Source: Chloroflexota bacterium
Lineage (GTDB): Bacteria; Chloroflexota; Limnocylindria; Limnocylindrales; CSP1-4
Length of the DNA: 64,000 nt
Direction: 5' to 3'
Assembly: GCA_021783095.1 (NCBI GenBank)
Contig: JAJXUG010000001.1
Location: 119,570 to 183,569, forward strand
The first letter of the stretch is position 1, and each line of letters starts with the position of its first letter. The notes under the pieces were generated by a model. That model did not search any database and was not told the DNA's origin. It saw only the letters and a program-made list of their open reading frames with translations. Below are positions 1,772 to 61,240 of this stretch, one piece after another. The position numbers and the translations under genes are program-made.

Positions 1772-3841
1772 ATGGAGGGCATGCCCACCTCGTACCCCGT
1801 GCCGCCCACCTCCGACCAGGCCGACGACTACCACGGCACCCTGATCGCGGACCCGTACCGCCCGCTCGAGGATGCCGACGCGCCGGCAACCCGGGCCTGG
1901 ATCGAGGCCGAGAACGAGCTGACCGAATCGCTGCTGGCGGCGGTCGCCGGCCGCGGGGCGATCAGGTCCCGGCTCGCGCAGCTGTGGGACGTCGCGCGCA
2001 GCGGGGTGCCCTGGCGGCGCGGCGACCGCTGGTTCCAGCTGCGCAACACGGGCCTCCAGAACCAGGACGTGCTGTGGACGTCCGACCGGCCCGGGGCCGA
2101 GGGCCGCGTCCTGCTCGACCCGAACGTGCTCAACGATGCCGGGACGACCACGCTGAGCTCGATCTCGGTCTCGGAGAGCGGACGCCTGGTCGCGATCGCG
2201 ACCTCCGAGGCGGGCTCCGACTGGCAGACCTGGCGGGTCCTCCGGGCCGACGACGGCACCGAGCTCCCCGATCGGATCCCGTGGAGCAAGTTCGCGGGGG
2301 CCGCGTGGACGCACGACGAGGCCGGGTTCGTCTACGGGCGCTTCCCGGAGCCCGCGCCGGGGGACGCCTTCGACGCGCCGAACCTCGGCATGCAGCTCCG
2401 CTACCACCGGCTCGGGTCGGACCCCGCCGATGACCCCATCGTCTACGAGCGGCCCGACCACGACGACTGGGGCTTCGAGCCCGAGGTCTCCGAGGACGGC
2501 GACCTGATGGTGATCACGGTCTGGCGCGGGACCGACCCCGAGACGCGGATCCACGTGGTCGACCTCCGAGGGTACGCGGGCGACGGTCCGCTCGAGGTGC
2601 GCCCGCTCCTCGACGCCGCGGACGCCGAGTACGAGCTCGTGGCGACCGTCGGCCGAACCCTCTACCTGCGGACGAACCTCGACGCCCCCAACCGCCGCCT
2701 CGTCGGGGTCGACGCCGACGATCCCGCCGCGGCGCTGCGCGAGGTCATCGCCGAGGGCCCGGACGCGCTCGAGCGCGTCACGCTCGTGGGCGGTCGGTTC
2801 GCCGCCGTCACCCTCCACGACGCCCACAGTCGCCTCGCCCTGTTCGAGCTCGACGGCACCCCCGTCGGCCCGGTCGAGATCCCGGGCACCGGCACGATCG
2901 ACGCAACGGCCGGCCGGCGCGGGGACGAGACGCTCTACCTCGGCCTGGACCAGTTCACCGCGCCCAAGCGGGTGCTGGCGGTGCGGATCGCCGACGGCCG
3001 CGTCGCGGTCCTCCCCGACGAGGGCCTGCCGTGGGACCCCGACGCGTTCGTCACCGAGGAGGTGTTCCCGGTGTCGGCCGACGGGACGCGCTTCCCGCTG
3101 TTCCTCGTGCGTCGCCGGGACGTCGAGCCCAACGGCGACGTGCCGACGATCCTCTACGGCTACGGCGGGTTCAGCATCGCGGTCGGGCCCCGGTTCAAGC
3201 CCGAGTGGCTCGCCTGGATGGAGCGCGGCGGGCTGCTTGCGGTCGCCTCGCTGCGCGGCGGCTCGGAGTACGGCACGGCCTGGCACGACGCCGGCCGCCT
3301 CGCCAACAAGCAGAACGTGTTCGACGACTTCGCCGCCGCCCTCCGCTGGCTCGCCGGCAGCGGCTGGACCCGGCCCGCTCGGATCGGGATCACGGGGCGC
3401 TCCAACGGCGGGCTGCTCGTGGGCGCGACGCTCACCCAGCACCCCGAGCTGCTGGGCGCGGCGGTCCCCGAGGTGGGCGTGATGGACATGCTCCGCTTCC
3501 ACCGGTTCACGATCGGCTGGGGCTGGACGAGCGACTACGGCAACCCCGACGACCCCGAGCAGTTCGCATGGGTGCTCGGGTACTCGCCGCTGCACCGCAT
3601 TCGGCCCGGCACCGCCTACCCGCCGACGCTGGTGACCACCGCCGACCACGACGACCGCGTGGTGCCCGGCCACTCGTTCAAGTTCGCCGCCGCGCTCCAG
3701 GCGGCCCAGGCGGGCGAGGCCCCGGTCCTGATCCGGGTCGACACCGACGCGGGCCACGGCGCCGGCAAGCCGGTCAGCAAGCTCATCGCGGAGCGCGCCG
3801 ACGTGCTCGCGTTCCTGGAGTCGGCGCTGGGCGAGACGTAG
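1772..3841 (+). CDS. Prolyl oligopeptidase (peptidase S9A family)
   Basis: N-terminus reads DDYHGTLIADPYRPLEDADAPATRAWIEAENELT, the hallmark of the S9A beta-propeller domain. The catalytic serine box is GITGRSNGGLLVGA, followed by C-terminal Asp and His regions. The 959-aa ORF from 962 is a frame over-extension; an alternative start is 1781 (MPTSYP). Confidence 0.85.
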   Translation: MEGMPTSYPVPPTSDQADDYHGTLIADPYRPLEDADAPATRAWIEAENELTESLLAAVAGRGAIRSRLAQLWDVARSGVPWRRGDRWFQLRNTGLQNQDVLWTSDRPGAEGRVLLDPNVLNDAGTTTLSSISVSESGRLVAIATSEAGSDWQTWRVLRADDGTELPDRIPWSKFAGAAWTHDEAGFVYGRFPEPAPGDAFDAPNLGMQLRYHRLGSDPADDPIVYERPDHDDWGFEPEVSEDGDLMVITVWRGTDPETRIHVVDLRGYAGDGPLEVRPLLDAADAEYELVATVGRTLYLRTNLDAPNRRLVGVDADDPAAALREVIAEGPDALERVTLVGGRFAAVTLHDAHSRLALFELDGTPVGPVEIPGTGTIDATAGRRGDETLYLGLDQFTAPKRVLAVRIADGRVAVLPDEGLPWDPDAFVTEEVFPVSADGTRFPLFLVRRRDVEPNGDVPTILYGYGGFSIAVGPRFKPEWLAWMERGGLLAVASLRGGSEYGTAWHDAGRLANKQNVFDDFAAALRWLAGSGWTRPARIGITGRSNGGLLVGATLTQHPELLGAAVPEVGVMDMLRFHRFTIGWGWTSDYGNPDDPEQFAWVLGYSPLHRIRPGTAYPPTLVTTADHDDRVVPGHSFKFAAALQAAQAGEAPVLIRVDTDAGHGAGKPVSKLIAERADVLAFLESALGET

Positions 3842-3973
3842 CGCCGCACGGCGTCGACACCAGCGGACCCAGCTCGCTCTTCGGGCGCTGGGCCCATCGC
3901 CGTCCGTTGGATAGCCGTCGCACGGAGGCGACAGAGCGAAGCGCCCGCGGTCGGCCAAGATCCGGCGAAGGTA

Positions 3974-3989
3974 CGCAATATATATTGCG
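3974..3989. promoter_or_regulatory. 16-bp perfect AT-rich palindrome CGCAATATATATTGCG, candidate ArsR/SmtB-type operator overlapping the -10 region
   Basis: The sequence is exactly self-complementary and sits 31 bp upstream of the ATG at 4020 of the ArsR-family gene. It is an extreme AT islet in a roughly 70% GC genome. Confidence 0.5.
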
Positions 3990-4019
3990 CACTACTCGTT
4001 GCGGATCTACCATGACCGC

Positions 4020-4610
4020 ATGAGCGAACCACGCGTCAAGCAGGTCACCGATCTGGCCGGGCTCCGGGCCCTCGGCCACCCACTCCGGCTCCGGCTCCTC
4101 GGCCTGCTTCGGGCAGGCGGCCCCGCAACGGCAACCGCGCTCGGGGACAAGGTGGGCGCCGCACCCAACGCGGTCAGCTACCACCTTCGACAACTCGCCA
4201 GGGCGGGGTTCATCGAGCCGGCCGAGACCTCCGGCGGCGACCGGCGTGAGCACGCCTGGAAGGCGAGCCACGAGACGACCTCGTGGGAGCCGTCGGGCTT
4301 CAAGGATTCGCCGGCGTCAAGCGCCGCAGCGGAACTCGTCCGTCGCCGGATCTTCGACGCCTACGACCAGGCCCTCGAGGCCTACCTCCTCGGCGAGCAC
4401 GGGGAGCCGGCATCGTGGCGGGCGGCTGCCGGGTTCGGCGACCTCGCATTCCGCGCCAGCCCGGGCGATCTCAAGGCCGTGCTGGCGGAGGTGAACGCTG
4501 TCGTCGCCCGCTCCCAGCAGCGCGCAATCGGGACCCTGGGCGATCCCGACCCCGACGCACGGACCGTCATGGTCATCTGGCACGGCTTCCCGCTGCCGGT
4601 GGACCGATGA
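4020..4610 (+). CDS. ArsR/SmtB-family winged-HTH transcriptional regulator
   Basis: MSEPRVKQVTDLAGLRALGHPLRLRLLGLLRAGGPATATALGDKVGAAPNAVSYHLRQLARAGFIE is a typical ArsR HTH. An alternative upstream ATG at 3999 would leave only 10 bp after the palindrome. The stop overlaps the next gene's ATG (ATGA). Confidence 0.7.
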   Translation: MSEPRVKQVTDLAGLRALGHPLRLRLLGLLRAGGPATATALGDKVGAAPNAVSYHLRQLARAGFIEPAETSGGDRREHAWKASHETTSWEPSGFKDSPASSAAAELVRRRIFDAYDQALEAYLLGEHGEPASWRAAAGFGDLAFRASPGDLKAVLAEVNAVVARSQQRAIGTLGDPDPDARTVMVIWHGFPLPVDR

Positions 4611-6175: not shown

Positions 6176-7834
<1,659 letters not shown>

Positions 7835-8212
7835 CGGGACCTCGGATGGGCGGGCGGGTCGTCGTGCTCACGATAGCGCGGGGCGTGGGTCAGGTTGGCA
7901 ACCTGCCGGAGTTGAGGCCGCCTGCGTCCTCTCCGGCCCAGGCCCGTTGACGCCGCAGCGCTCGGAACGGCCCAAGCGGAACTCGGACGACGGTCGAGGT
8001 CGTCGGAGGCGAGCGTCTCGCGTGCGGGACGCTCGCGTCTGCCGTCAGCCTGGAACTGCTCCCATCGCGCCATTGTGCAGGGCTCCCGCAGAAGCGTAGG
8101 ATGCGCCTGACCCGAACCAGCTCCTCGTACGGGGCTCGTCCGAGACCGCCAGCTTGTTCCGGCGGCCGGATGCATGAGCCCGCGATGCCCTGGGCGGGAT
8201 GGAGGTTCTTGC

Positions 8213-9313
<1,101 letters not shown>

Positions 9314-20062: not shown

Positions 20063-20362
20063 TCAGCTGCCGGTCCAGCCGGTGCCGGCCATCCAGGCCT
20101 TCCAGACGTCCGGGTGGGCGTCGACCCACTTCTTGGCGGCGTCGTCATCGGACATCTTGTTGGAGATGTCGGTGGCGACCGCGTTCTGGTCGTCGTTGGT
20201 CCACTTGAAGTTCTTGATGAAGGCGACGGCGGGGCTGCCGCTGTTCACGAACGTGGTGGACGCGACCTTGTTGAGGTTGTACGGCGGGTAGTCGCAGGTC
20301 ATCGACTTCGAGTTGCTGTCACAAAGGGGCGTCAGGCTCGTTGTGCAGACTGCGTTTGTCAT
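20063..20362 (-). CDS. 99-aa ORF encoding only an OpuAC-type (glycine betaine-binding SBP) internal helical segment: orphan fragment, possibly a gene remnant
   Basis: ...DYPPYNLNKVASTTFVNSGSPAVAFIKNFKWTNDDQNAVATDISNKMSDDDAAKKWVDAHPDVWKAWMAGTGW matches the OpuAC block ...AAKLLSQFKWTQDEMGEIM...[27 protein letters not shown]. Codon usage is genome-typical, and the ATG overlaps the iclR stop (ATGA). Confidence 0.5.
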   Translation of the reverse strand: MTNAVCTTSLTPLCDSNSKSMTCDYPPYNLNKVASTTFVNSGSPAVAFIKNFKWTNDDQNAVATDISNKMSDDDAAKKWVDAHPDVWKAWMAGTGWTGS

Positions 20363-21168
20363 GCCGTCCCCCTCCGGTCGCGCCAGCCGAGTCGGCGCCC
20401 GATCTCGTCGCCGGCCGCCATCACGGCCGCAGCGACGGCCTCGAACCGGTCCGGGCCCAGCCGATACGTGGGTCCCGAGACGCTCACGGCGGCCACCACG
20501 GCGCCGTCGTGGCCGCGGATGGGTGCGGCGATCGCGTTGAGCCCCACCTCGAGCTCCTCGGTCGTGGAGGCCCAGCCGGACGCCGCCGCGCGGGCCAGCT
20601 CACGCTCGAGGACCGAGCGGTTGGTGATGGTCGCCGGCGTGAAGCGCTCCAGCGGCCGTGCCAGCAGCCGGGCGCGCTCCGCGGGGTCCGCGCTGGCGAG
20701 CAGCACCTTGCCGCTCGAGGTGGCGTGGAGCGGCGTTCGCTGGCCCACCCAGTTCTGCGTGGCGACGGTGGCGCCTCCGAGCACCTGGTCCACGTTGACC
20801 ACAGCGTCGCCCTCAAGCCTGGCCACGTTCACCGTCTCCCCCACCTCGGCGGCGAGGCGCCGCGACACGGACCGGCTCTGTTCCACGAGGTCGAGCCGAC
20901 CCGCGGTGGCGCCAGCGAGCCTGACCAGCCCGAAGCCGAGCCGGTAGCGGCCGCGCTCGCTGACCTGCTCCACGAGGCCGCGAGCCTCGAGGACCGCCAG
21001 CAGCCGGTGCGCGGTGCTCTTGTGGACGCCCAGGGCCGCGGCGAGGTCGGTCACCGCCCCGTCCTCGCGCTCGGCGAGGTACTCGAGCACGTCGATGGCG
21101 CGGTCGACCGACTGGATGACGGCCGGCGACCCGATGACGGCGGCCGCCCCGCTTCGGCCCTCAGCCAT
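20359..21168 (-). CDS. IclR-family transcriptional regulator
   Basis: N-terminal wHTH (SVDRAIDVLEYLAEREDGAVTDLAAALGVHKSTAHRLLAVLEARGLV) and a C-terminal IclR effector domain (GLNAIAAPIRGHDGAVVAAVSVSGP). Confidence 0.85.
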   Translation of the reverse strand: MAEGRSGAAAVIGSPAVIQSVDRAIDVLEYLAEREDGAVTDLAAALGVHKSTAHRLLAVLEARGLVEQVSERGRYRLGFGLVRLAGATAGRLDLVEQSRSVSRRLAAEVGETVNVARLEGDAVVNVDQVLGGATVATQNWVGQRTPLHATSSGKVLLASADPAERARLLARPLERFTPATITNRSVLERELARAAASGWASTTEELEVGLNAIAAPIRGHDGAVVAAVSVSGPTYRLGPDRFEAVAAAVMAAGDEIGRRLGWRDRRGTA

Positions 21169-25139: not shown

Positions 25140-26057
25140 TCAGCCGGCGGTGACCGCGGCACCCGCCCGGCGCCGGTTGACGCGCCGCTCGCGGCCGTCG
25201 GCCGCCTCGCCGGTGGGATCCCGGTTGGCGCGGATCCAGGCGGCGGCGTCGGCGTCGTTGCCGAGTAGCACGTCGGCGGCCATGATCGATTTGCGCACGT
25301 CGGGCAGCAGCGGGTTGGTGATCGCCGAGGTCAGGCCGTTGCTGATGGCCATGGCCAGGAACGCCGAGTTGACCCCCTCGCGGGCCGGCAGGCCGAAGCT
25401 GACGTTCGAGGCGCCGCAGGTGGTGTTCACCTTGAGCTCGTCGCGCAGCCGGTTGAGCAGGGCGAACACCTGGCGGCCGGCGGTGCGCATGGCGCCGATG
25501 GGCATGACCAGCGGGTCCACGATCACGTCCTCGCGCGGGATGCCGTGGTCGGCGGCGCGCTCGACGATCCGCTTGGCCACCGCGAACCGCACGTCCGGGT
25601 CGGTCGAGATGCCCGTGTCGTCGTTGGAGATGGCGACCACTGCCGCGCCGTACTTGCGGACCAGCGGCAGGACGCGCTCCATGCGCTCCTCCTCGCCGGT
25701 CACCGAGTTGACCAGCGCCTTGCCCTGGTAGACCGAGAGTCCCGCCTCGAGCGCGTCCATGACCGACGAGTCGATCGACAGCGGCAGGTCGGTCAGCGAC
25801 TGGACCAGCTTGACCGTGCGGGCGAGGATCCCGGGCTCGTCCGCGAGCGGGATGCCCGCGTTGACGTCGAGCATGTGGGCGCCGGCCTCGACCTGGGCGA
25901 TGACGTCGCGCTCGACCCGGCTGAAGTCGCCGTTGCGCATCTCCTCGCCCAGGAGCTTGCGCCCGGTGGGGTTGATCCGCTCGCCGATGACCACGAACGG
26001 GAGGTCACCGCTGATGACCACCTCGCGGGTCGCCGAGCTGATGACGGTGCGGGTCAT
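25140..26057 (-). CDS. Pterin-binding (DHPS-like TIM barrel) methyl-corrinoid:tetrahydrofolate methyltransferase (MtgA/MtqA/AcsE-like MT2)
   Basis: FVVIGERINPTG...DVNAG...LSIDS...ALVNSV...ISND pterin-binding domain pattern (PF00809-like), 305 aa. Overlaps the upstream DUF1638 gene by 4 nt. Confidence 0.8.
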   Translation of the reverse strand: MTRTVISSATREVVISGDLPFVVIGERINPTGRKLLGEEMRNGDFSRVERDVIAQVEAGAHMLDVNAGIPLADEPGILARTVKLVQSLTDLPLSIDSSVMDALEAGLSVYQGKALVNSVTGEEERMERVLPLVRKYGAAVVAISNDDTGISTDPDVRFAVAKRIVERAADHGIPREDVIVDPLVMPIGAMRTAGRQVFALLNRLRDELKVNTTCGASNVSFGLPAREGVNSAFLAMAISNGLTSAITNPLLPDVRKSIMAADVLLGNDADAAAWIRANRDPTGEAADGRERRVNRRRAGAAVTAG

Positions 26058-26902
26058 GGGGCCTCCGTGGGGACTGGCGCCGGGGATGCGGTCGGCGTGG
26101 CGGGTGGTGCGGCCGCGAAGCCGCGGCTGGCGGTGAGCGCAGCGAGGCGCGCGCGGGGGAACTCGGCTTCGATCCGCAGGGGCAGCATCGCCTTGGCCGT
26201 GCGGCGGCCCTCCTTGGCCGCCACTCCTGCCTCGGCCTGCTCGCGCCCTTCGCCCGCCTTCCTCGCGGGCCCGCCGGCCAGACGCGCCATCGCGCTGCCG
26301 AGCTCGCCGTAGCCCGTCGGCCGATGCTCGAACGCCAGCCCGAGCCGGACGGCCGCCCGGCGCGCCAACTCGAGGACTTCCGGGTCGTCATGCTGCGATA
26401 GGTAGACCACGCGCTGATAGCCCGCGAAGTACACAGGCAGCAACTCCGGGTGGCGGTCGAGCCCGAGGCCGCGGACCACGAGCGCCTCGAAGCTGCGGGC
26501 CAGGAAGTCGGTCAGGTAGAAGGTCCCGGGCTCCTCGGCCGCCAGCGCGGCGAACTCGGCGAGTCCCGTGAAGGTGGCGTAGCAGTGGGCGCCCGGCAGC
26601 CGATCAGCGCCGTGCCTGGCCAGCACCGTGTCGAGCGCACCGGCCGTGCCGCAGTCGGCGTACGCCACGAACACCCGGTCGTAGCCGTCCGCGAGCTGAG
26701 CGAGCTTCGCGTCGACCGCTGGCGCAATCTGCTCCGGGCGGTTGTGGAGCTGCGCGGGCAGGCAGCGCACGTCGACGGCCCCGGCCAGCCCGTTGCGCTC
26801 GACGAGCTCGAGCAGCTCGCGGGCGAGCGCGCCGCAGCCCACGACGAGCGTCGGGGCGAGGGCTTCGGAGGACGCCGTCGGCCGGAGCCCGCGATCGGTC
26901 AT
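26054..26902 (-). CDS. DUF1638 domain protein (accessory protein recurrently linked to corrinoid methyltransferase systems)
   Basis: Start MTDRGLRP at 26902, overlapping the corrinoid-protein stop (ATGA). C-terminal Ala/Pro-rich tail. The 528-aa ORF from 27640 runs in a different frame over the corrinoid gene and is an artefact. Confidence 0.65.
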   Translation of the reverse strand: MTDRGLRPTASSEALAPTLVVGCGALARELLELVERNGLAGAVDVRCLPAQLHNRPEQIAPAVDAKLAQLADGYDRVFVAYADCGTAGALDTVLARHGADRLPGAHCYATFTGLAEFAALAAEEPGTFYLTDFLARSFEALVVRGLGLDRHPELLPVYFAGYQRVVYLSQHDDPEVLELARRAAVRLGLAFEHRPTGYGELGSAMARLAGGPARKAGEGREQAEAGVAAKEGRRTAKAMLPLRIEAEFPRARLAALTASRGFAAAPPATPTASPAPVPTEAP

Positions 26903-27576
26903 GCGACGAACTTGCGGGCCGTTTCTGCCGCGATCGCGGCGTCGCGGCAGTAGGCGTCGGCACCGACCGCCATCGCGAACTCCTCGTTGAGCGGCGCGCC
27001 GCCCACGAGGACCACGTACTTGTCGCGGATGCCGCGGTCCTTGAGCGCCTGGATCACGACCTTCATGTACGGCATCGTGGTCGTCAGCAGCGCGGACATG
27101 CCGAGGATGTCGGCCTTGTGCTCCTCGAGCGCGGCCAGGAACTTGTCGGCGTCCGTGTTGACGCCGAGGTCGACGACGTCGAAGCCGGCGCCCTCGAGCA
27201 TCATCCCGACCAGGTTCTTGCCGATGTCGTGGATGTCCCCCTTCACGGTGCCGATGACGACCTTGCCGACCGGCTTGGCGCCCGTCTCGGCGAGCAGCGG
27301 GCGGAGCACCGCCATGCCGGCCTTCATCGCGTTGGCGGCGAGCAGCACCTCGGGGACGAACAGGATCCCGTCGCGGAAGTCGACGCCGACGATGCGCATG
27401 CCCTCGACGAGCGCCTCGGCCAGCACCTTGTCCGCGCCCCAGCCTCGCCCGAGGAGGACCTTCGTGCCCTCGACCGTCTCGGGCGCGAGCCCGTCGTAAA
27501 GGTCGTCGTGCATCTGGCTGACCAGTTCCTCGTCGCTCAGCGAGGCGAGGTCGAGTTCCTGCTCGTCGGTTCCCAT
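26899..27576 (-). CDS. Cobalamin-binding corrinoid protein (MtgC/MttC-like; B12-binding cap plus Rossmann domain)
   Basis: DxHxxG motif GDIHDIGKN with downstream SALLTTT and GGA motifs. 225 aa from MGTDEQ (27576); the 323-aa ORF is over-extended. Confidence 0.85.
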   Translation of the reverse strand: MGTDEQELDLASLSDEELVSQMHDDLYDGLAPETVEGTKVLLGRGWGADKVLAEALVEGMRIVGVDFRDGILFVPEVLLAANAMKAGMAVLRPLLAETGAKPVGKVVIGTVKGDIHDIGKNLVGMMLEGAGFDVVDLGVNTDADKFLAALEEHKADILGMSALLTTTMPYMKVVIQALKDRGIRDKYVVLVGGAPLNEEFAMAVGADAYCRDAAIAAETARKFVA

Positions 27577-27946
27577 TGGCTCCTGCCGGTGACGCTGTGT
27601 AGCGGATGGCGCAACGAGTTGCGGATTGCGCAACGGACAATAGACGAGAGCCGCGGCTCTGTCCAGACGGTATCGCGCTGCGGGCGGTCGCTGGGTGCGC
27701 GAGCCGGACGATCCGGGCGTCGGTTCGATCGCGCTGGCGTCGCCGGGATCCTCCGCATCGCGCGCCGCTCCCGATCGGATCCTCCAGATCGCCTCCGGGG
27801 GGCGCTTCGCCCCGTCGGCCAGATTGGCGGGCGCCTGCTCGTGCGTGAGCCGGCCGACGCTGGCGCCCATATCGCCTGCCGGGGGCGATTTGGCGGGATT
27901 CGCTTGGCTAAGCGCCGCCGAGAGGCGAAATGGCGGGGGCGGTGCG

Positions 27947-28010
27947 GCGCGGAGCCCGCACGCGGCGCGGAGCCCGCACGCGGCGCGGAGCCCGCACGCG
28001 GCGCGGAGCC
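27947..28010. repeat. Tandem repeat, 18-bp unit GCGCGGAGCCCGCACGCG x 3.6, inside a 470-bp intergenic region
   Basis: Three perfect head-to-tail copies at 27947-27964, 27965-27982 and 27983-28000, plus a 10-nt partial fourth copy. Read directly from the sequence. Confidence 0.7.
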
Positions 28011-28046
28011 TGGACGCCGAGCTTCGCGCCCAGGTGCGACGGGCCG

Positions 28047-28724
28047 CTAGGCGGCGGGGACGGAGTCGCCGCCTCGGTCGGCCGCCGAGAGGCGCTCCTC
28101 CGTGTACCGGTAGTGGGCGGCGACCGCGTCCGTTGCGCGCTGCGGATCCCGGGCCCCGATGGCGTCGGCGATGTGGCGGTGGACCTCGACGGGCGGAATC
28201 CAGGCGAGCGATGACCGCGTCGCCACCGCGGTCCGCATCAGCAGGACGGTCTGGGACGCCAGCTGCTCGAAGACCGCCAGGAGGCGGCCGTTGCCGGACA
28301 GCCGGCAGTAGCTGCGGTGGAACTCCATGTCGGCGTCCCAGGCTGCGGCGAGGTCGGGGCCCCGGTAGGCGTCCTCGACCACCTCGAGGGCCGCCCTGAG
28401 GTCGGTGAGCTCCTCGTCGGTGGCGTGGGAGATCGCGAGCCGCACCGCGACCTCCTCGATCGCCCGGCGGATGACGTACACCTCGTTGAGATCGGCCTCG
28501 GTCAGGCTGCTGACGAACGTCCCGCGTCGGGGAAGGTCAACTGCGAGACCCGTGCGGGCGAGCTCGGTGAGGGCGTCCCGGATAGGCCCGCGCGAGACGC
28601 CGAATCGGTCCGCGAGCTCGGTCTCGACCAGTCTCGAGCCCGCAGGAAGGCGCCCCTCGAGAATCTCGTCGCGCAGCTGGTCCGCAACTGCCTGCCAGAG
28701 TTGCTTGTGGTCGATCGTGGCCAT
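28047..28724 (-). CDS. GntR-family transcriptional regulator (FadR subfamily with FCD effector domain)
   Basis: wHTH (LVETELADRFGVSRGPIRDALTELARTGL) plus an all-helical C-terminal FCD-like domain. Divergent from the DMGO-like gene. Confidence 0.85.
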   Translation of the reverse strand: MATIDHKQLWQAVADQLRDEILEGRLPAGSRLVETELADRFGVSRGPIRDALTELARTGLAVDLPRRGTFVSSLTEADLNEVYVIRRAIEEVAVRLAISHATDEELTDLRAALEVVEDAYRGPDLAAAWDADMEFHRSYCRLSGNGRLLAVFEQLASQTVLLMRTAVATRSSLAWIPPVEVHRHIADAIGARDPQRATDAVAAHYRYTEERLSAADRGGDSVPAA

Positions 28725-28777: not shown

Positions 28778-28804
28778 ACTGTTGACAGAAAGATTGTCAA
28801 CAGT
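28778..28804. promoter_or_regulatory. Perfect 10-7-10 inverted repeat ACTGTTGACA-gaaagat-TGTCAACAGT in the gntR/dmgO divergent promoter region (candidate GntR operator; contains TTGACA)
   Basis: Exact inverted repeat in an AT-richer stretch between gntR (start 28724) and the DMGO-like gene (start 28996). Flanked by direct repeats GATTGAC/GATTGTC. Confidence 0.5.
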
Positions 28805-53626: not shown

Positions 53627-53804
53627 TGACGGATCGTACCGAATCGCAGGGCGGCAAACGGCTGGCACGCGCGCGATGGGACGCGCGCGGGCGCGCGAGG
53701 GACGGCGATGCCACCAGGTCGTCGCGCGGGGCCGACTCGGGCCCCCGGAACCGGGCCACCCGCGCACGGGCCGGAGGGGCCTCGCGGCCGGGGGTGCCCC
53801 CCAC

Positions 53805-53983
53805 GATGCTTCAACGTTGGCGGAAGCATCGCGCCGGGTGCTCGCTGACCGCCACACGTGCGGGTGCCAGTCCGACCCCGCGGGCGAGGGCGCGGACCAC
53901 CCGGCATCGTCGCGACGGCGGCTGCACGAGCGCCGCGCTCATGGGGCATGGCAGCCCGATGCTTCCACGAAGTCGGAAGGATC
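53805..53983 (-). promoter_or_regulatory. Two related hairpin/inverted-repeat motifs (GATGCTTC-N10-GAAGCATC at 53805-53830; GATGCTTCC-N8-GGAAGGATC at 53958-53983) in the 447-bp region upstream of betA
   Basis: Read directly from the sequence. The first is a perfect 8-bp inverted repeat, the second has one mismatch, and both are followed by similar GGGTGCC-containing flanks. The function is unknown. Confidence 0.3.
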
Positions 53984-54073
53984 TCGACCCCCAAGCTGTG
54001 GCGGCGGTGCCACCCGGGTGCCGACCACGAGTGGCCTCGGTCGCGGCGGAAGGCACGACCGGGGAAAAGCGTC

Positions 54074-57476: not shown

Positions 57477-57551
57477 GCCGGGCAGCGTAGCCGGTCGGTG
57501 GCCGCGGCGCGCTCCGGGGCCGCCCCGAACCGCAGCGTCAGGGCGTGCCGG

Positions 57552-58493
57552 TCAGCCCGGCTCCTGGTCCTTGAGCCGGCGCCGCAGGTGCGTGAGCCCG
57601 CCCTCCATCGGCCGAGGGTCGAAGCCGAAGCCGGCGTGGACGCTGTCAAGGGGGCCGATGTTGTCGTGGCGGAGCTGGCGGAGCTGGTCCGTGGCCACCG
57701 GGAACGGCGCCCTGACCGCCTCGGCGGCGCCCGCGACGGCCCGGATCACGGCCACCGGCATCGGCATGAGCAGGCGCCGGGCGCCCATCCCGCGGAGCAC
57801 CTCCTCGACGATCTCGCGGTAGGTCCAGTAGCGCGGCCCGCCGAGCAGCAGCTCCCGGCCCGCGTACGCGTCGTCGCCCAGCGCGATCACGCACGCCCGG
57901 GCGAGGTCCTCGATCGCGAGGGGCTGGAAGCGCGCCTTCCCGCTGCCGGTGATGGGCACGATCCCGGGCGACATCCGGACGAGGCCCGCGAGCAGGTTGA
58001 AGAACCCGTCGCGCGGCCCGAACAGCAGCGACGGCGCGAGGATCGTCGTGCGCAGCCCGCTCTCGCGCACGATCGCCATCGCCTTGGCCTTGGAGCTCCC
58101 GTAGTGGAGGTCCGGCTCGTCGGTCACGCCCAGCGCACCCAGGTGCACCAGCCGCTCAGCCCCGGCCGCCCGCATGGCGGCGACCACGTTGCGGGTGCCC
58201 TCGGTGTTGACCAGGCGCAGGGTCTCCCCGCCGTCCCAGTCGCGCGCGATCGCGGCCAGGTGCACGGTCGCGTCCACCCCGACGAGCGCTGCGGGCAGCG
58301 TGTCGGGCTTGGTGACGTCGCCCCGGCGCACCTCCACCCGTTCGCGCTGAGAGGCGGGCAGGCGGCGGACCACCAGCGCGCCGGCCTCGTCGTCGCGAAC
58401 CAGCGCGACCACGCTGTGGCCGGCGTCGAGCAGGGCCGGGACGACGTGGCTGCCGACGAAGCCGTTGGCGCCGGTGACGAGGATGGTCTTCAT
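57552..58493 (-). CDS. NAD(P)-dependent epimerase/dehydratase (extended SDR, NmrA/complex-I NDUFA9-like)
   Basis: MKTILVTGANGFVGSHVVPALLDAGHSV Rossmann motif. 313 aa from ATG 58493. Confidence 0.8.
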   Translation of the reverse strand: MKTILVTGANGFVGSHVVPALLDAGHSVVALVRDDEAGALVVRRLPASQRERVEVRRGDVTKPDTLPAALVGVDATVHLAAIARDWDGGETLRLVNTEGTRNVVAAMRAAGAERLVHLGALGVTDEPDLHYGSSKAKAMAIVRESGLRTTILAPSLLFGPRDGFFNLLAGLVRMSPGIVPITGSGKARFQPLAIEDLARACVIALGDDAYAGRELLLGGPRYWTYREIVEEVLRGMGARRLLMPMPVAVIRAVAGAAEAVRAPFPVATDQLRQLRHDNIGPLDSVHAGFGFDPRPMEGGLTHLRRRLKDQEPG

Positions 58494-60563: not shown

Positions 60564-60585
60564 GGACCGATGCTACCGTCTGCCC

Positions 60586-61197
60586 ATGCCCGCAGCCCCT
60601 CGATCCCCGCTCGACGACACCGACCGCCTGATCGTCGACGGCACCAACATGCTCCGCCGGATCGGCCCGACGGCGCCCGCGTCGACGATCGTCGGCCGCA
60701 TCCGCGCCGCGGTCCCGCTGACGATCACGATCGAGCTCGTGTTCGACGGGGTCGGCCACGGGGTGAACGGCCGCCTCGCCCAGGCGATGCGGGTGCGCTA
60801 CTCGGGCCGCCGGACAGCCGACGAGGCGATCCTCGACTTGGTGGGCGACGCCGCCACCGGCGGCCCGGGGCCCCTGGTGGCGGCGCGGACGCTGGTCGTC
60901 ACCGACGACCGCGCCCTCCGGATCGCGCTGACCGCGAGGGGCGCGCGCACGGCGGGCGTGGTCTGGCTGCTGGGGCGGATGCAGGTGCCGGCGCTGGCCA
61001 TCCCCACGGGCCGCCGCTCGACGTCGATCGGGTCGGGCCGCCCGCCGCTGCTCCTCGGGACCACCGGGGTCGGCCCGGGGTCGGGCAAGGACGAGGCCGA
61101 CGCCCGGCCGGGCTGGAAGCCCGGTCGCGGCGCCACGGCCAAGACCGGGACGCCGAAGCGCGTGGCGCGACATCGGCGGCATCCGCGCCAACCCTGA
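60586..61197 (+). CDS. NYN-domain (YacP/Rae1-like) putative ribonuclease
   Basis: LIVDGTNMLRR...ELVFDG...ADEAILDLV...LVVTDDRALR parallels B. subtilis YacP (LLVDGYNMI...VVFDA...ADERIE...VATSD). Arg/Pro-rich C-terminal tail. Confidence 0.6.
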   Translation: MPAAPRSPLDDTDRLIVDGTNMLRRIGPTAPASTIVGRIRAAVPLTITIELVFDGVGHGVNGRLAQAMRVRYSGRRTADEAILDLVGDAATGGPGPLVAARTLVVTDDRALRIALTARGARTAGVVWLLGRMQVPALAIPTGRRSTSIGSGRPPLLLGTTGVGPGSGKDEADARPGWKPGRGATAKTGTPKRVARHRRHPRQP

Positions 61198-61240
61198 CCG
61201 CGCAAGCCCGCGTTCCCGAGCGCGCTGTTAGGATGCGCCC

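Follow-up and report, generated by a model that had tools for sequence, protein, structure and literature searches.

A conserved predicted promoter-operator module adjoins a lineage-specific, repeat-prone spacer upstream of a B12-dependent demethylation operon in Limnocylindria (Chloroflexota)

The closest described counterparts of the operon considered here are the MtgB/MtgC/MtgA clusters of Desulfitobacterium hafniense and of aerobic marine bacteria (PMC12478193), which encode the same set of MttB-superfamily, corrinoid, pterin-binding methyltransferase, RamA/RACo and DUF1638 proteins, whereas the substrate of our operon is predicted from its genes. That publication describes the pathway; the words 'promoter', 'GntR' and 'IclR' are absent from it, and 'regulator' and 'riboswitch' occur once each, in its reference list. 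Beyond this pathway description, the literature we searched gave no account of the regulation of operons of this type.

Known operators of IclR-family regulators include that of E. coli IclR at aceBAK and PcaU/PobR-type sites built from several repeated half-sites, and the intergenic minisatellites of high-G+C bacteria include the mycobacterial MIRU-VNTR loci, with units of 40-100 bp. Like IclR operators that overlap promoters, the locus described here has a pair of neighbouring boxes, each pseudo-palindromic and about 17 bp long, some two helical turns apart and right after the predicted -10 hexamer; an IclR gene lies within the operon, and related boxes adjoin divergent IclR genes in sister lineages. 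It differs in that its own IclR gene is not divergent but closes the operon, about 6.4 kb downstream. The likeness to MIRU-VNTR loci consists of perfect head-to-tail copies in the spacer of co-directional genes that differ by whole units between strains of one species, whereas here the unit is 18 bp, the locus is single within 64 kb and relatives carry unrelated units at the same place.

We analysed a window of 64 kb (the whole stretch of DNA under study), in which the operon runs in the order corrinoid protein, DUF1638, pterin-binding methyltransferase, RACo/RamA, MttB-family protein, 127-aa protein and IclR. The pterin-binding methyltransferase is the methyl-corrinoid:THF methyltransferase and RACo/RamA the activase, and genes for dimethylglycine dehydrogenase, ETF and a betaine-type ABC transporter lie nearby; the operon is of the cobalamin-dependent glycine-betaine-type demethylation type, with its substrate predicted from these genes. 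Its first gene, encoding a corrinoid (B12-binding) protein of 225 aa, lies at 26899-27576 on the minus strand (read from 27576 to 26899; identified by Pfam and neighbouring genes), and its last regulator gene, for the IclR-family protein, lies at 20359-21168, also on the minus strand (placed by the gene table of locus L001 mapped to the window, a gene call and comparative evidence). Upstream of the operon and co-directional with it is gntR, encoding a GntR/FCD-family regulator (28047-28724, minus strand, read from 28724 to 28047; Pfam PF00392 and PF07729). The 470-nt spacer at 27577-28046, between these two minus-strand genes, is bounded by the gntR stop on one side and the corrinoid-protein ATG on the other, and a terminator scan found no canonical terminator between gntR and the operon. 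An earlier note on this DNA had called spacers of such length rare, which holds only roughly, this one being fourth of about 46 gaps in the window by a crude GC3-based gene call that misses some genes and start codons.

The spacer quite probably consists of two unrelated parts, an ordinary promoter-operator of about 100 bp beside an unconstrained, slippage-prone stretch of about 370 bp. When the spacer was compared with those of relatives by blastn, only spacer positions ~369-470 matched, at 77-89% identity. These matches and alignments A2 and A3 delimit a promoter-operator-RBS module at 27577-27676 (minus strand), the sole part common to relatives, which is kept in eight orthologous loci with GntR identities of 75-97%. 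A promoter scan placed a -35 hexamer, TGGACA, at 27660-27665 and a -10 hexamer, TATTGT (TAnnnT), at 27637-27642, both on the minus strand. All eight orthologous spacers carry T[G/C/A]GACA at the same position and, exactly 17 nt past it, a TAnnnT -10 (TATTGT, TATCGT, TATGGT or TACACT); the sequence between the two drifts across the eight loci, with hexamers and spacing fixed (alignment A3). TGGACA-N17-TATTGT has 9 of 12 consensus matches and is the sole sigma-70-like site in 27400-28300, where shuffled sequence would give 0.0, and by its hexamers, a spacing within 16-18 nt and its conservation in orthologues it is a predicted promoter of the sigma-70/SigA type. Directly 5' of the -35 is a conserved GCGnAAnC block (27669-27676, minus strand; alignment A3, columns 25-32), possibly an extended -35/UP-like element or an activator half-site, and the ribosome-binding site GGCAGGAG at 27580-27587 (minus strand) is invariant in all eight spacers. 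Transcription is predicted to start near 27630, giving a 5' UTR of about 55 nt. The view of all 470 bp as a composite regulatory leader or structured 5' UTR, put forward in the earlier note, is not supported: the predicted promoter leaves so short a UTR, and the distal part is absent from the closest relatives.

We detected two putative operator boxes within the module. Box 1 (GTTGCGCAATCCGCAAC, with arms GTTGCG and CGCAAC and a 5-nt centre; 27618-27634, minus strand) is supported by conservation in alignment A3, begins 2 nt past the -10 and spans the predicted transcription start. Box 2 (GTTGCGCCATCCGCTAC; 27599-27615, minus strand) is a direct repeat of it in the same alignment, and both 17-bp boxes share the pattern GTTGCRNNNTCCGNNAC, 19 bp apart; we know of no named operator that this pattern matches. 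Among GntR-linked loci, all those extending as far as the corrinoid gene have both boxes, at -57 to -61 and at -39 to -42 relative to the ATG, independent of spacer length. The pair corresponds to a palindrome cluster by the start codon that had been noticed previously and is present, but reads GCGCAAC-GA-GTTGCG-GAT-TGCGCAAC at 27609-27634, with a spacer of GA rather than GAG and a start one base from that first given; the 8-bp perfect palindrome TTGCGCAA within it is confirmed at 27626-27633. Conservation places the cluster above chance, and its operator-like character and location inside the conserved promoter agree with its proposed role as an operator. In box 1, five of the six arm pairs are invariant, and a covariation test across orthologous loci found no compensatory changes in the box arms, where variation breaks pairing or sits in the box centres, which suggests that the boxes act in DNA, as an operator, and not as a helix in RNA. 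An RNA hairpin at the boxes was dropped as a candidate on this count of zero compensatory pairs.

IclR and GntR had both been suggested as binders, and either is a natural predicted candidate for the cluster. We assign boxes 1 and 2 to the operon's IclR, most probably their repressor, because similar box pairs lie upstream of the same gene in lineages with a divergent IclR and without GntR. These came to light in an outgroup of 80 corrinoid-protein loci from many phyla (71-84% identity, from a protein search of genome contigs), none of which has the GntR gene or similarity in the spacer and whose use lies in revealing IclR-type boxes. In loci of Chloroflexota and Actinomycetota that lack GntR, the corrinoid gene is preceded by pairs of GTTsCryNATnCGsnAC in the same layout, several of them at 0 mismatches and with an 18-nt period, and in L005, L008, L009, L015 and L037 an IclR gene whose product is 37-43% identical to the window's IclR divergently adjoins the corrinoid gene. 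A box was present in 6 of 10 loci with IclR in reach versus 10 of 76 without (Fisher p = 0.002, uncorrected for phylogeny); among the 10 box-bearing loci without IclR, six are GntR-linked and end before the IclR position, and four belong to Acidimicrobiia with no IclR within 6 kb. The congener L101 keeps IclR at the end of the operon.

This assignment is correlative, and the boxes could be bound by GntR, in place of IclR or alongside it. Binding of 27599-27634 by the adjacent GntR/FCD protein and not by IclR, such that GntR would control both its divergent neighbours and the corrinoid operon, strikes us as possible but rather unlikely. Adjacent regulators commonly control neighbouring operons, gntR is immediately upstream, and exact GTTGCR...CCGNNAC boxes were confined to loci with this GntR. 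However, same-layout box pairs occur in lineages with IclR and without GntR, and the boxes are unlike the GntR/FadR-type operator consensus, T.GT-N(x)-AC.A. That consensus is loosely fitted by a second, different palindrome, TGTTGACA-N7-TGTCAACA, which lies outside the spacer at 28780-28802, between gntR and the divergent dimethylglycine-dehydrogenase/ETF genes. This palindrome has one match versus 0.04 expected, and all GntR-linked loci whose sequence takes in the divergent region have it in identical form. These include L095 and L100, where the corrinoid operon is replaced and the boxes and IclR are gone, yet the palindrome stays with gntR. We regard it as the likelier putative GntR operator.

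With IclR as the favoured binder, we propose that a housekeeping-sigma promoter, TGGACA-17 nt-TATTGT, is followed at once by two GTTGCRNNNTCCGNNAC boxes, which span the early 5' UTR and the site where transcription is predicted to start. If a repressor sat on these boxes as a dimer of dimers, RNA polymerase would be blocked until an inducer, which may be glycine betaine or a related metabolite, released it; the most probable repressor is the IclR-family product of the gene that ends the operon. GntR/FCD would more probably act at TGTTGACA-N7-TGTCAACA, between its own gene and the dimethylglycine-dehydrogenase/ETF genes.

The distal part of the spacer, at 27677-28046, is lineage-specific, unconserved and prone to repeats; we recognised no gene, mobile element or RNA family in it. 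This part is upstream of the predicted promoter, with its repeats, motifs and hairpins at a distance of 130-370 nt. The spacer between gntR and the corrinoid gene measures 470 nt in the window and 434 nt in conspecifics, 547, 388 and 213 nt in relatives with GntR 97, 92 and 93-95% identical; among more distant relatives the values are 187, 427 and 825 nt, or 2248 nt where three genes are included. Where the GntR of a relative is 92-97% identical, its spacer aligns only over the proximal ~100 nt and has no similarity to the distal part. Blastn and tblastx comparisons of the spacer with the whole window and with the inserts carried by L089, L092 and L094 returned nothing beyond the promoter module. 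The three genes at this site in L089 and the 228-aa ORF called there in L092 indicate that genes come and go at this position. Each relative examined has its own unrelated short GC-rich tandem repeat at or just past the gntR 3' end, and the C-terminal tail of GntR past ...RLSAAD already differs among relatives (alignment A4). A search of metagenome contigs with GntR gave one locus, which has only 74 nt downstream and was of no use for spacer comparison. We also observed six regularly spaced CACCAAC-N3-GTTGGTG palindromes in L098, and an exact 14-nt match between 27914-27927 and the gntR 3' end (28081-28094) that was not significant. From these comparisons, the distal ~370 bp appears to be unconstrained spacer in rapid turnover by insertion, deletion and replication slippage.

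The most conspicuous distal element, an 18-bp tandem repeat already described from the letters alone, is real. Tandem Repeats Finder (TRF) reports it as an 18-bp minisatellite (GCGGCGCGGAGCCCGCAC) at 27944-28010, with 3.7 copies, a period of 18, 100% matches and a score of 134, the highest in the 64-kb window. Four conspecific contigs (three from metagenome assemblies and one from an NCBI MAG), otherwise 98.5-99.5% identical to the window, have 1.7 copies, exactly 36 bp or two units less, with copy numbers read from assemblies and not from mapped reads. The array is above chance and behaves as a VNTR, a young minisatellite that is polymorphic within the species, and its variation in copy number without other change is as expected for neutral slippage. 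Dispersed copies of the 18-mer in the 64-kb window are at chance level (2 at 3 mismatches vs ~2 expected) and the box pattern has no further sites there, so that neither a dispersed family nor a local regulon is indicated within the window. The whole spacer likewise gave only chance-level matches against the window, and, within the window, a dispersed repeat of the REP/BIME or MITE type was rejected on these chance-level copies. The repeat block is absent in close relatives whose operon is otherwise the same, an outcome that counts against the regulatory leader proposed in the earlier note; that transcription of the operon starts close to the corrinoid gene and leaves the repeats untranscribed is as predicted from the promoter.

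Two other distal features had also caught the eye. Of three proposed GCGAwwTGGCGGG motifs, GCGATTTGGCGGG (27885-27897) and GCGAAATGGCGGG (27925-27937) are exact matches on the plus strand, but the third, CAGATTGGCGGG (27820-27831, plus strand, by direct reading), is looser. The motif is above chance (three loose copies vs at least two in 0 of 300 dinucleotide shuffles), and its copies derive from older local duplications that have since decayed (families D4 and D6), the GCGATTTGGCGGG copy lying in one that pairs 27867-27890 with 27784-27807. The hairpins GGGGCG-CTT-CGCCCC (27799-27813) and ATCGCC-N7-GGCGAT (27871-27889) are exactly as proposed, but their number does not exceed chance: the spacer has four perfect hairpins of at least 6 bp vs 3.4 +/- 2.3 in shuffles, 142 of 300 shuffles reach four, and so do 23% of the other 470-nt windows in the stretch. 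These GC hairpins are a chance product of 75% G+C sequence.

Co-directional genes without a canonical terminator between them mean that transcripts may extend into the distal spacer, whether as the 3' UTR of gntR or by read-through. It could then function as RNA: as a gntR 3' UTR/terminator, as an sRNA confined to this lineage, or as a long structured leader reached by read-through from gntR. The hairpin-forming 18-nt units (GUGCGG-GCU-CCGCGC) would then modulate stability or termination. By direct reading each unit alone could form a 6-bp hairpin, in the predicted fold the units form a stack of nested GC helices, and a GC-rich tandem repeat stands at the gntR 3' end of every relative examined. 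In addition, MFE and centroid folds predict a 9-bp hairpin, CCUGGGCGC-N8-GCGUCCAGG, 12 nt past the gntR stop (28009-28034, minus strand); it has no U-tail and no canonical terminator was found there, and a role as terminator or 3'-end structure for gntR is possible on this model. We nevertheless regard an RNA function of the distal spacer as improbable, given that neither sequence nor structure is conserved among relatives with 92-97% identical GntR, that copy number varies within the species without other change, and that the folding signal is slight and Rfam gives no match. Fold z-scores were -1.56 sense and -1.79 antisense, with 9 of 100 and 5 of 100 shuffles, respectively, folding at least as well, which does not bear out the description of the region as structured.

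The position of a long, GC-rich spacer ahead of an operon for a corrinoid protein also brings to mind a riboswitch, and a scan for the cobalamin riboswitch had been proposed. Genomic context is the only likeness to cobalamin riboswitches (RF00174); the spacer has no covariance-model match to them at the gathering threshold or even at E<=10, and no conservation. At the Rfam 15 gathering threshold the whole window yielded only malK-III at 8113-8215, and at E<=10 the interval 27400-28200 yielded four sub-threshold chance matches of 14-18 bits, with no riboswitch among them. For described Rfam families this explanation is refuted, and we give practically no credence to control of the B12-dependent operon by a cobalamin or other known riboswitch.

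Part of the spacer might instead be coding, either as an N-terminal extension of the corrinoid protein (an ORF at 26899-27870, 323 aa) or as what is left of a decayed gene that once separated gntR from the operon. In the corrinoid frame, which has an ATG at 27870, the spacer is open throughout, a weak GC3 and codon-usage signal runs in that frame over ~27711-27950, and L089 and L092 have their three genes and 228-aa ORF at the same position. Long open frames are, however, expected at 72-75% G+C, and the signal is weak: the log-likelihood ratio of the corrinoid frame is at most +6.9 per 120 nt vs +15 to +21 in real genes, and GC3 is 0.85-0.88 vs ~1.0 in genes. The would-be extension would also contain the conserved promoter, operator and RBS, where GC3 collapses, and the 225-aa ATG is the start in every gene call and every homologue. 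Tblastx against the L089 and L092 inserts showed no similarity outside the shared promoter region, a six-frame Pfam scan of the spacer gave no match, and HMMER found no homologues of the in-frame 125 aa at E<=0.001 among 1.84 billion representative proteins. Both coding variants were downgraded on the lack of a Pfam match and of protein homologues, and we consider them very improbable.

Likewise improbable is the idea that the distal repeats (the 18-bp VNTR, CCCGCCAAWTCGC copies and the L098 palindromes) form a maintained, strain-specific cis element, as a protein-binding array or a gntR 3'-UTR/terminator module, or, more modestly, that the GTTsCryNATnCGsnAC pair marks an undescribed IclR regulon. 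In a gntR 3'-UTR/terminator module, repeat copy number could tune regulator dosage and hence operon induction; the IclR regulon, if real, would govern B12-dependent methylamine/betaine demethylation operons across Chloroflexota and Actinomycetota.

On the preferred reading of two unrelated parts, annotation gains by a division of the spacer into real control sequence (about 100 bp) and noise that strikes the eye (about 370 bp), and by removing a false lead to a B12 riboswitch or structured leader. Two further gains, neither of which would surprise a specialist, concern the biology of these organisms. Among close relatives this spacer gathers independent minisatellites, insertions and even operon replacement, and it could serve as a strain marker in metagenomes. 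The other gain, a modest one, is a testable operator and promoter model for the cobalamin-dependent glycine-betaine-type demethylation operons of uncultured Limnocylindria (Chloroflexota).

The 470-nt spacer at 27577-28046 separates genes for a GntR/FCD regulator (28724 to 28047, minus strand) and a B12-binding corrinoid protein (27576 to 26899, minus strand) in a window of 72% G+C. The operon continues after the corrinoid gene with DUF1638, a pterin-binding methyltransferase, a RACo/RamA-type activase, an MttB-family methyltransferase, a 127-aa protein, and an IclR regulator, and upstream, oriented divergently to gntR, are a dimethylglycine-dehydrogenase-like gene (dmgdh), ETF genes, and ABC transporter genes; this is a gene set for cobalamin-dependent glycine betaine demethylation. 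The DUF1638 gene of this species (26054-26902) encodes 282 aa, with no separately called PF13769 gene, and in the related loci L086, L092, L096, and L098 a shorter DUF1638 gene (224-247 aa) is followed by a 116-aa PF13769 ('Virulence_fact') gene and then the pterin-binding methyltransferase. The earlier note was right that the spacer is long, but it is not unique, ranking as the fourth-longest gap in the window by a crude GC3-based gene call. Other long gaps in that call (447-988 nt; 57477-58464, 3842-4606, 60564-61240, and 53627-54073) include some that probably contain missed genes.

Alignment of the proximal regions of eight orthologous loci revealed a conserved minus-strand module consisting of a -35 hexamer T[G/C/A]GACA (27665-27660), exactly 17 variable nt, a -10 hexamer TAnnnT (TATTGT in the window; 27642-27637), two variable nt, and two 17-bp boxes GTTGCRNNNTCCGNNAC with a 19-bp period (27634-27618 and 27615-27599), followed by a variable stretch, an invariant ribosome-binding site (RBS) GGCAGGAG, and the ATG. 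Directly upstream of the -35 hexamer, all eight promoters carry a GCGnAAnC block (27669-27676), which may extend the promoter or provide a further contact for protein. An independent promoter scan returned this as the sole sigma-70-like site in 27400-28300 (0.0 expected), with a predicted transcription start near 27630, within box 1, where a bound protein would occlude the promoter. The earlier note had proposed a composite regulatory leader or structured 5' UTR spanning the whole spacer; the predicted start, so close to the corrinoid gene, would speak against this. The palindrome cluster that it described beside the start codon is present at 27609-27634 and reads GCGCAAC-GA-GTTGCG-GAT-TGCGCAAC, correcting a one-base slip in transcription. 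When the box arms were scored as RNA helices, we found no compensatory changes, and every departure breaks a pair, though most pairs are invariant and so uninformative either way; this lack of compensation favors a site bound by protein on the DNA over a folded RNA. The suggestion of IclR or GntR operators is supported for a conserved operator-like box pair in the proximal ~100 bp and not for the unconserved distal part. The box sequence could not be matched to a described operator.

Of 80 corrinoid-gene loci in other lineages, none carries this GntR, and box pairs of the same layout precede the corrinoid gene in Chloroflexota and Actinomycetota among them, such as GTTCCATCATACGGCAC-C-GTTCCACGATGTGGCAC in L005. 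The pattern GTT.C...AT.CG..AC was matched with no mismatches in L005, L007, L008, L009, L013, and L037, and in L005, L008, L009, L015, and L037 a divergent IclR gene, 37-43% identical to that of the window, adjoins the corrinoid gene. The box was present in 6 of 10 loci with IclR versus 10 of 76 without it (p = 0.002, kinship ignored), and six of those ten box-bearing loci end too early to show an IclR gene. IclR has kept its place at the end of the operon in the congener L101. Between gntR and dmgdh lies a perfect palindrome, TGTTGACA-N7-TGTCAACA (28780-28802). All GntR-linked loci that extend across this divergent region conserve it, with N7 or N8 at the centre, and it stays with gntR in the relatives L095 and L100, where the operon and boxes are missing. 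This palindrome is a probable GntR autoregulatory or dmgdh operator; the TTGACA within it might also serve as a -35 hexamer. Because the boxes co-occur with IclR and the palindrome persists with gntR without the operon, we favor, with modest confidence, IclR as the protein that binds boxes 1 and 2 and GntR as the one that binds the palindrome; the reverse assignment, or dual control, is possible.

Four Acidimicrobiia loci (L007, L010, L013, and L016) also have box pairs of the type GTTCCAC..ATrCGG.AC, ~50-120 nt before the corrinoid gene, with no IclR homologue detected within +/-6 kb; the gene for the regulator that binds them may lie elsewhere, or some other protein may take that role. Among proteobacterial loci, the sole box-1-like case was L069 (SAR116, Alphaproteobacteria), with TTGCGGATGCCGCAA (CTTGCGGCATCCGCAAC on the other strand) at -76 from the corrinoid ATG, which may be coincidence.

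The remainder of the spacer behaves very differently across relatives. Four conspecific contigs (from three assemblies and one NCBI MAG), found by exact-protein look-up, have a 434-nt spacer that is 98.5-99.5% identical to that of the window apart from the 18-bp repeat, of which they lack exactly two units, so the array behaves as a VNTR. Further relatives, gathered via GntR homologues, all share a common architecture of dmgdh divergent from gntR and then the corrinoid operon, with spacers of widely differing length: 547 nt in L098 (97% GntR identity), 213 nt in L085 (93-95%), 388 nt in L096 and L101 (92%), 187 nt in L086 and 427 nt in L094 (both about 76%), and 825 nt in L092 and 2248 nt in L089 (both about 75%). 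Three genes lie inside the L089 spacer (6664-8911), after gntR and ahead of the conserved corrinoid promoter, encoding a 161-aa unknown protein, a glyoxalase-family protein, and a 57-aa ORF. L095 and L100 encode a GntR protein identical to that of L096 and have the initial 196 nt of spacer in common with it, beyond which L096 and L101 continue into the corrinoid operon and L095 and L100 into unrelated DNA (a GT87 glycosyltransferase gene, an unknown ORF, and a DDE transposase), with the whole operon missing; the spacer is therefore a rearrangement breakpoint.

By blastn, similarity between the relatives and the window is confined to the ~100 nt nearest the corrinoid gene (77-89% identity), and the distal parts are mutually unrelated except for L085/L096 (76% over 208 nt) and L095/L096. 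L098 and L096 have their own tandem repeats at the 3' end of gntR or shortly beyond it (2771-2810, 16-mer x2.6, and 3866-3915, 23-mer x2.1), as does L085 inside the GntR coding tail (1376-1408, 12-mer x2.8), all unrelated to one another and to that of the window. The GntR C-terminal tail is variable after ...RLSAAD, and the repeats at the gntR 3' end represent recurrent, independent slippage at one site. Since only the proximal ~100 nt is shared and each relative has its own repeat, the repeat block is absent in close relatives, contrary to a whole-spacer leader. The equivalent L098 spacer (2821-3120) also contains six 17-bp palindromes CACCAAC-N3-GTTGGTG at regular 50-62-nt intervals (0.13 expected), with none elsewhere in the 5.7-kb locus and none meaningful in the window; these may represent a cluster of the REP/BIME kind or an array of binding sites.

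The features reported for the distal 370 bp proved to be of mixed standing. The 18-bp repeat (27944-28010) is real, with 3.7 copies, 100% matches, and the highest TRF score in the window (134), and is an ordinary intergenic minisatellite. Two of the three GCGAwwTGGCGGG motifs are exact and the third, at 27820-27831, is a looser variant; the repeated GCGAww motif is above chance (at least two copies in 0 of 300 shuffles), and its copies lie within the decayed local duplications D4 and D6. Both named GC hairpins are present, but hairpin number is at chance level (four perfect hairpins of at least 6 bp versus 3.4 +/- 2.3 in dinucleotide shuffles), and ~23% of 470-nt windows elsewhere reach the same count. 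RNA folding z-scores of -1.56 and -1.79, a distal part unshared with relatives, and the lack of any Rfam family leave the composite structured leader unsupported. Rfam 15 gave no match in the spacer at the gathering threshold, and only four chance-level matches at E<=10, none of them a cobalamin or other riboswitch. At the gathering threshold, the single match in the window was a malK-III RNA (RF03009; 8113-8215, plus strand; 75.5 bits versus a gathering score of 50, E = 2.6e-15), which overlaps the 5' end of a plus-strand gene that the crude call, unreliable for starts, begins at 8174.

The distal part has no similarity elsewhere in the 64-kb window and no Pfam signal in any frame. The corrinoid frame has no stop codon across the spacer and contains an ATG at 27870, with a weak coding-like bias at ~27711-27950 (GC3 0.85-0.88; LLR at most +6.9 per 120 nt versus +15 to +21 in genes); its translation had no homologues among 1.84 billion representative proteins, and the conserved promoter and RBS fall within the would-be N-terminal extension. 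The most economical interpretation is that this DNA is unconstrained and has been shaped by slippage and indels; it may contain unrecognizable debris of earlier insertions, since genes come and go at this site in L089 and L092.

The proximal module resembles a classical repressor-controlled promoter with a putative IclR-type operator pair, a new instance rather than a new kind of element. The chief gain would be a defined model of promoter and operator for B12-dependent demethylation operons of the betaine type from uncultured Chloroflexota; the spacer additionally provides a clear case of hypervariability.
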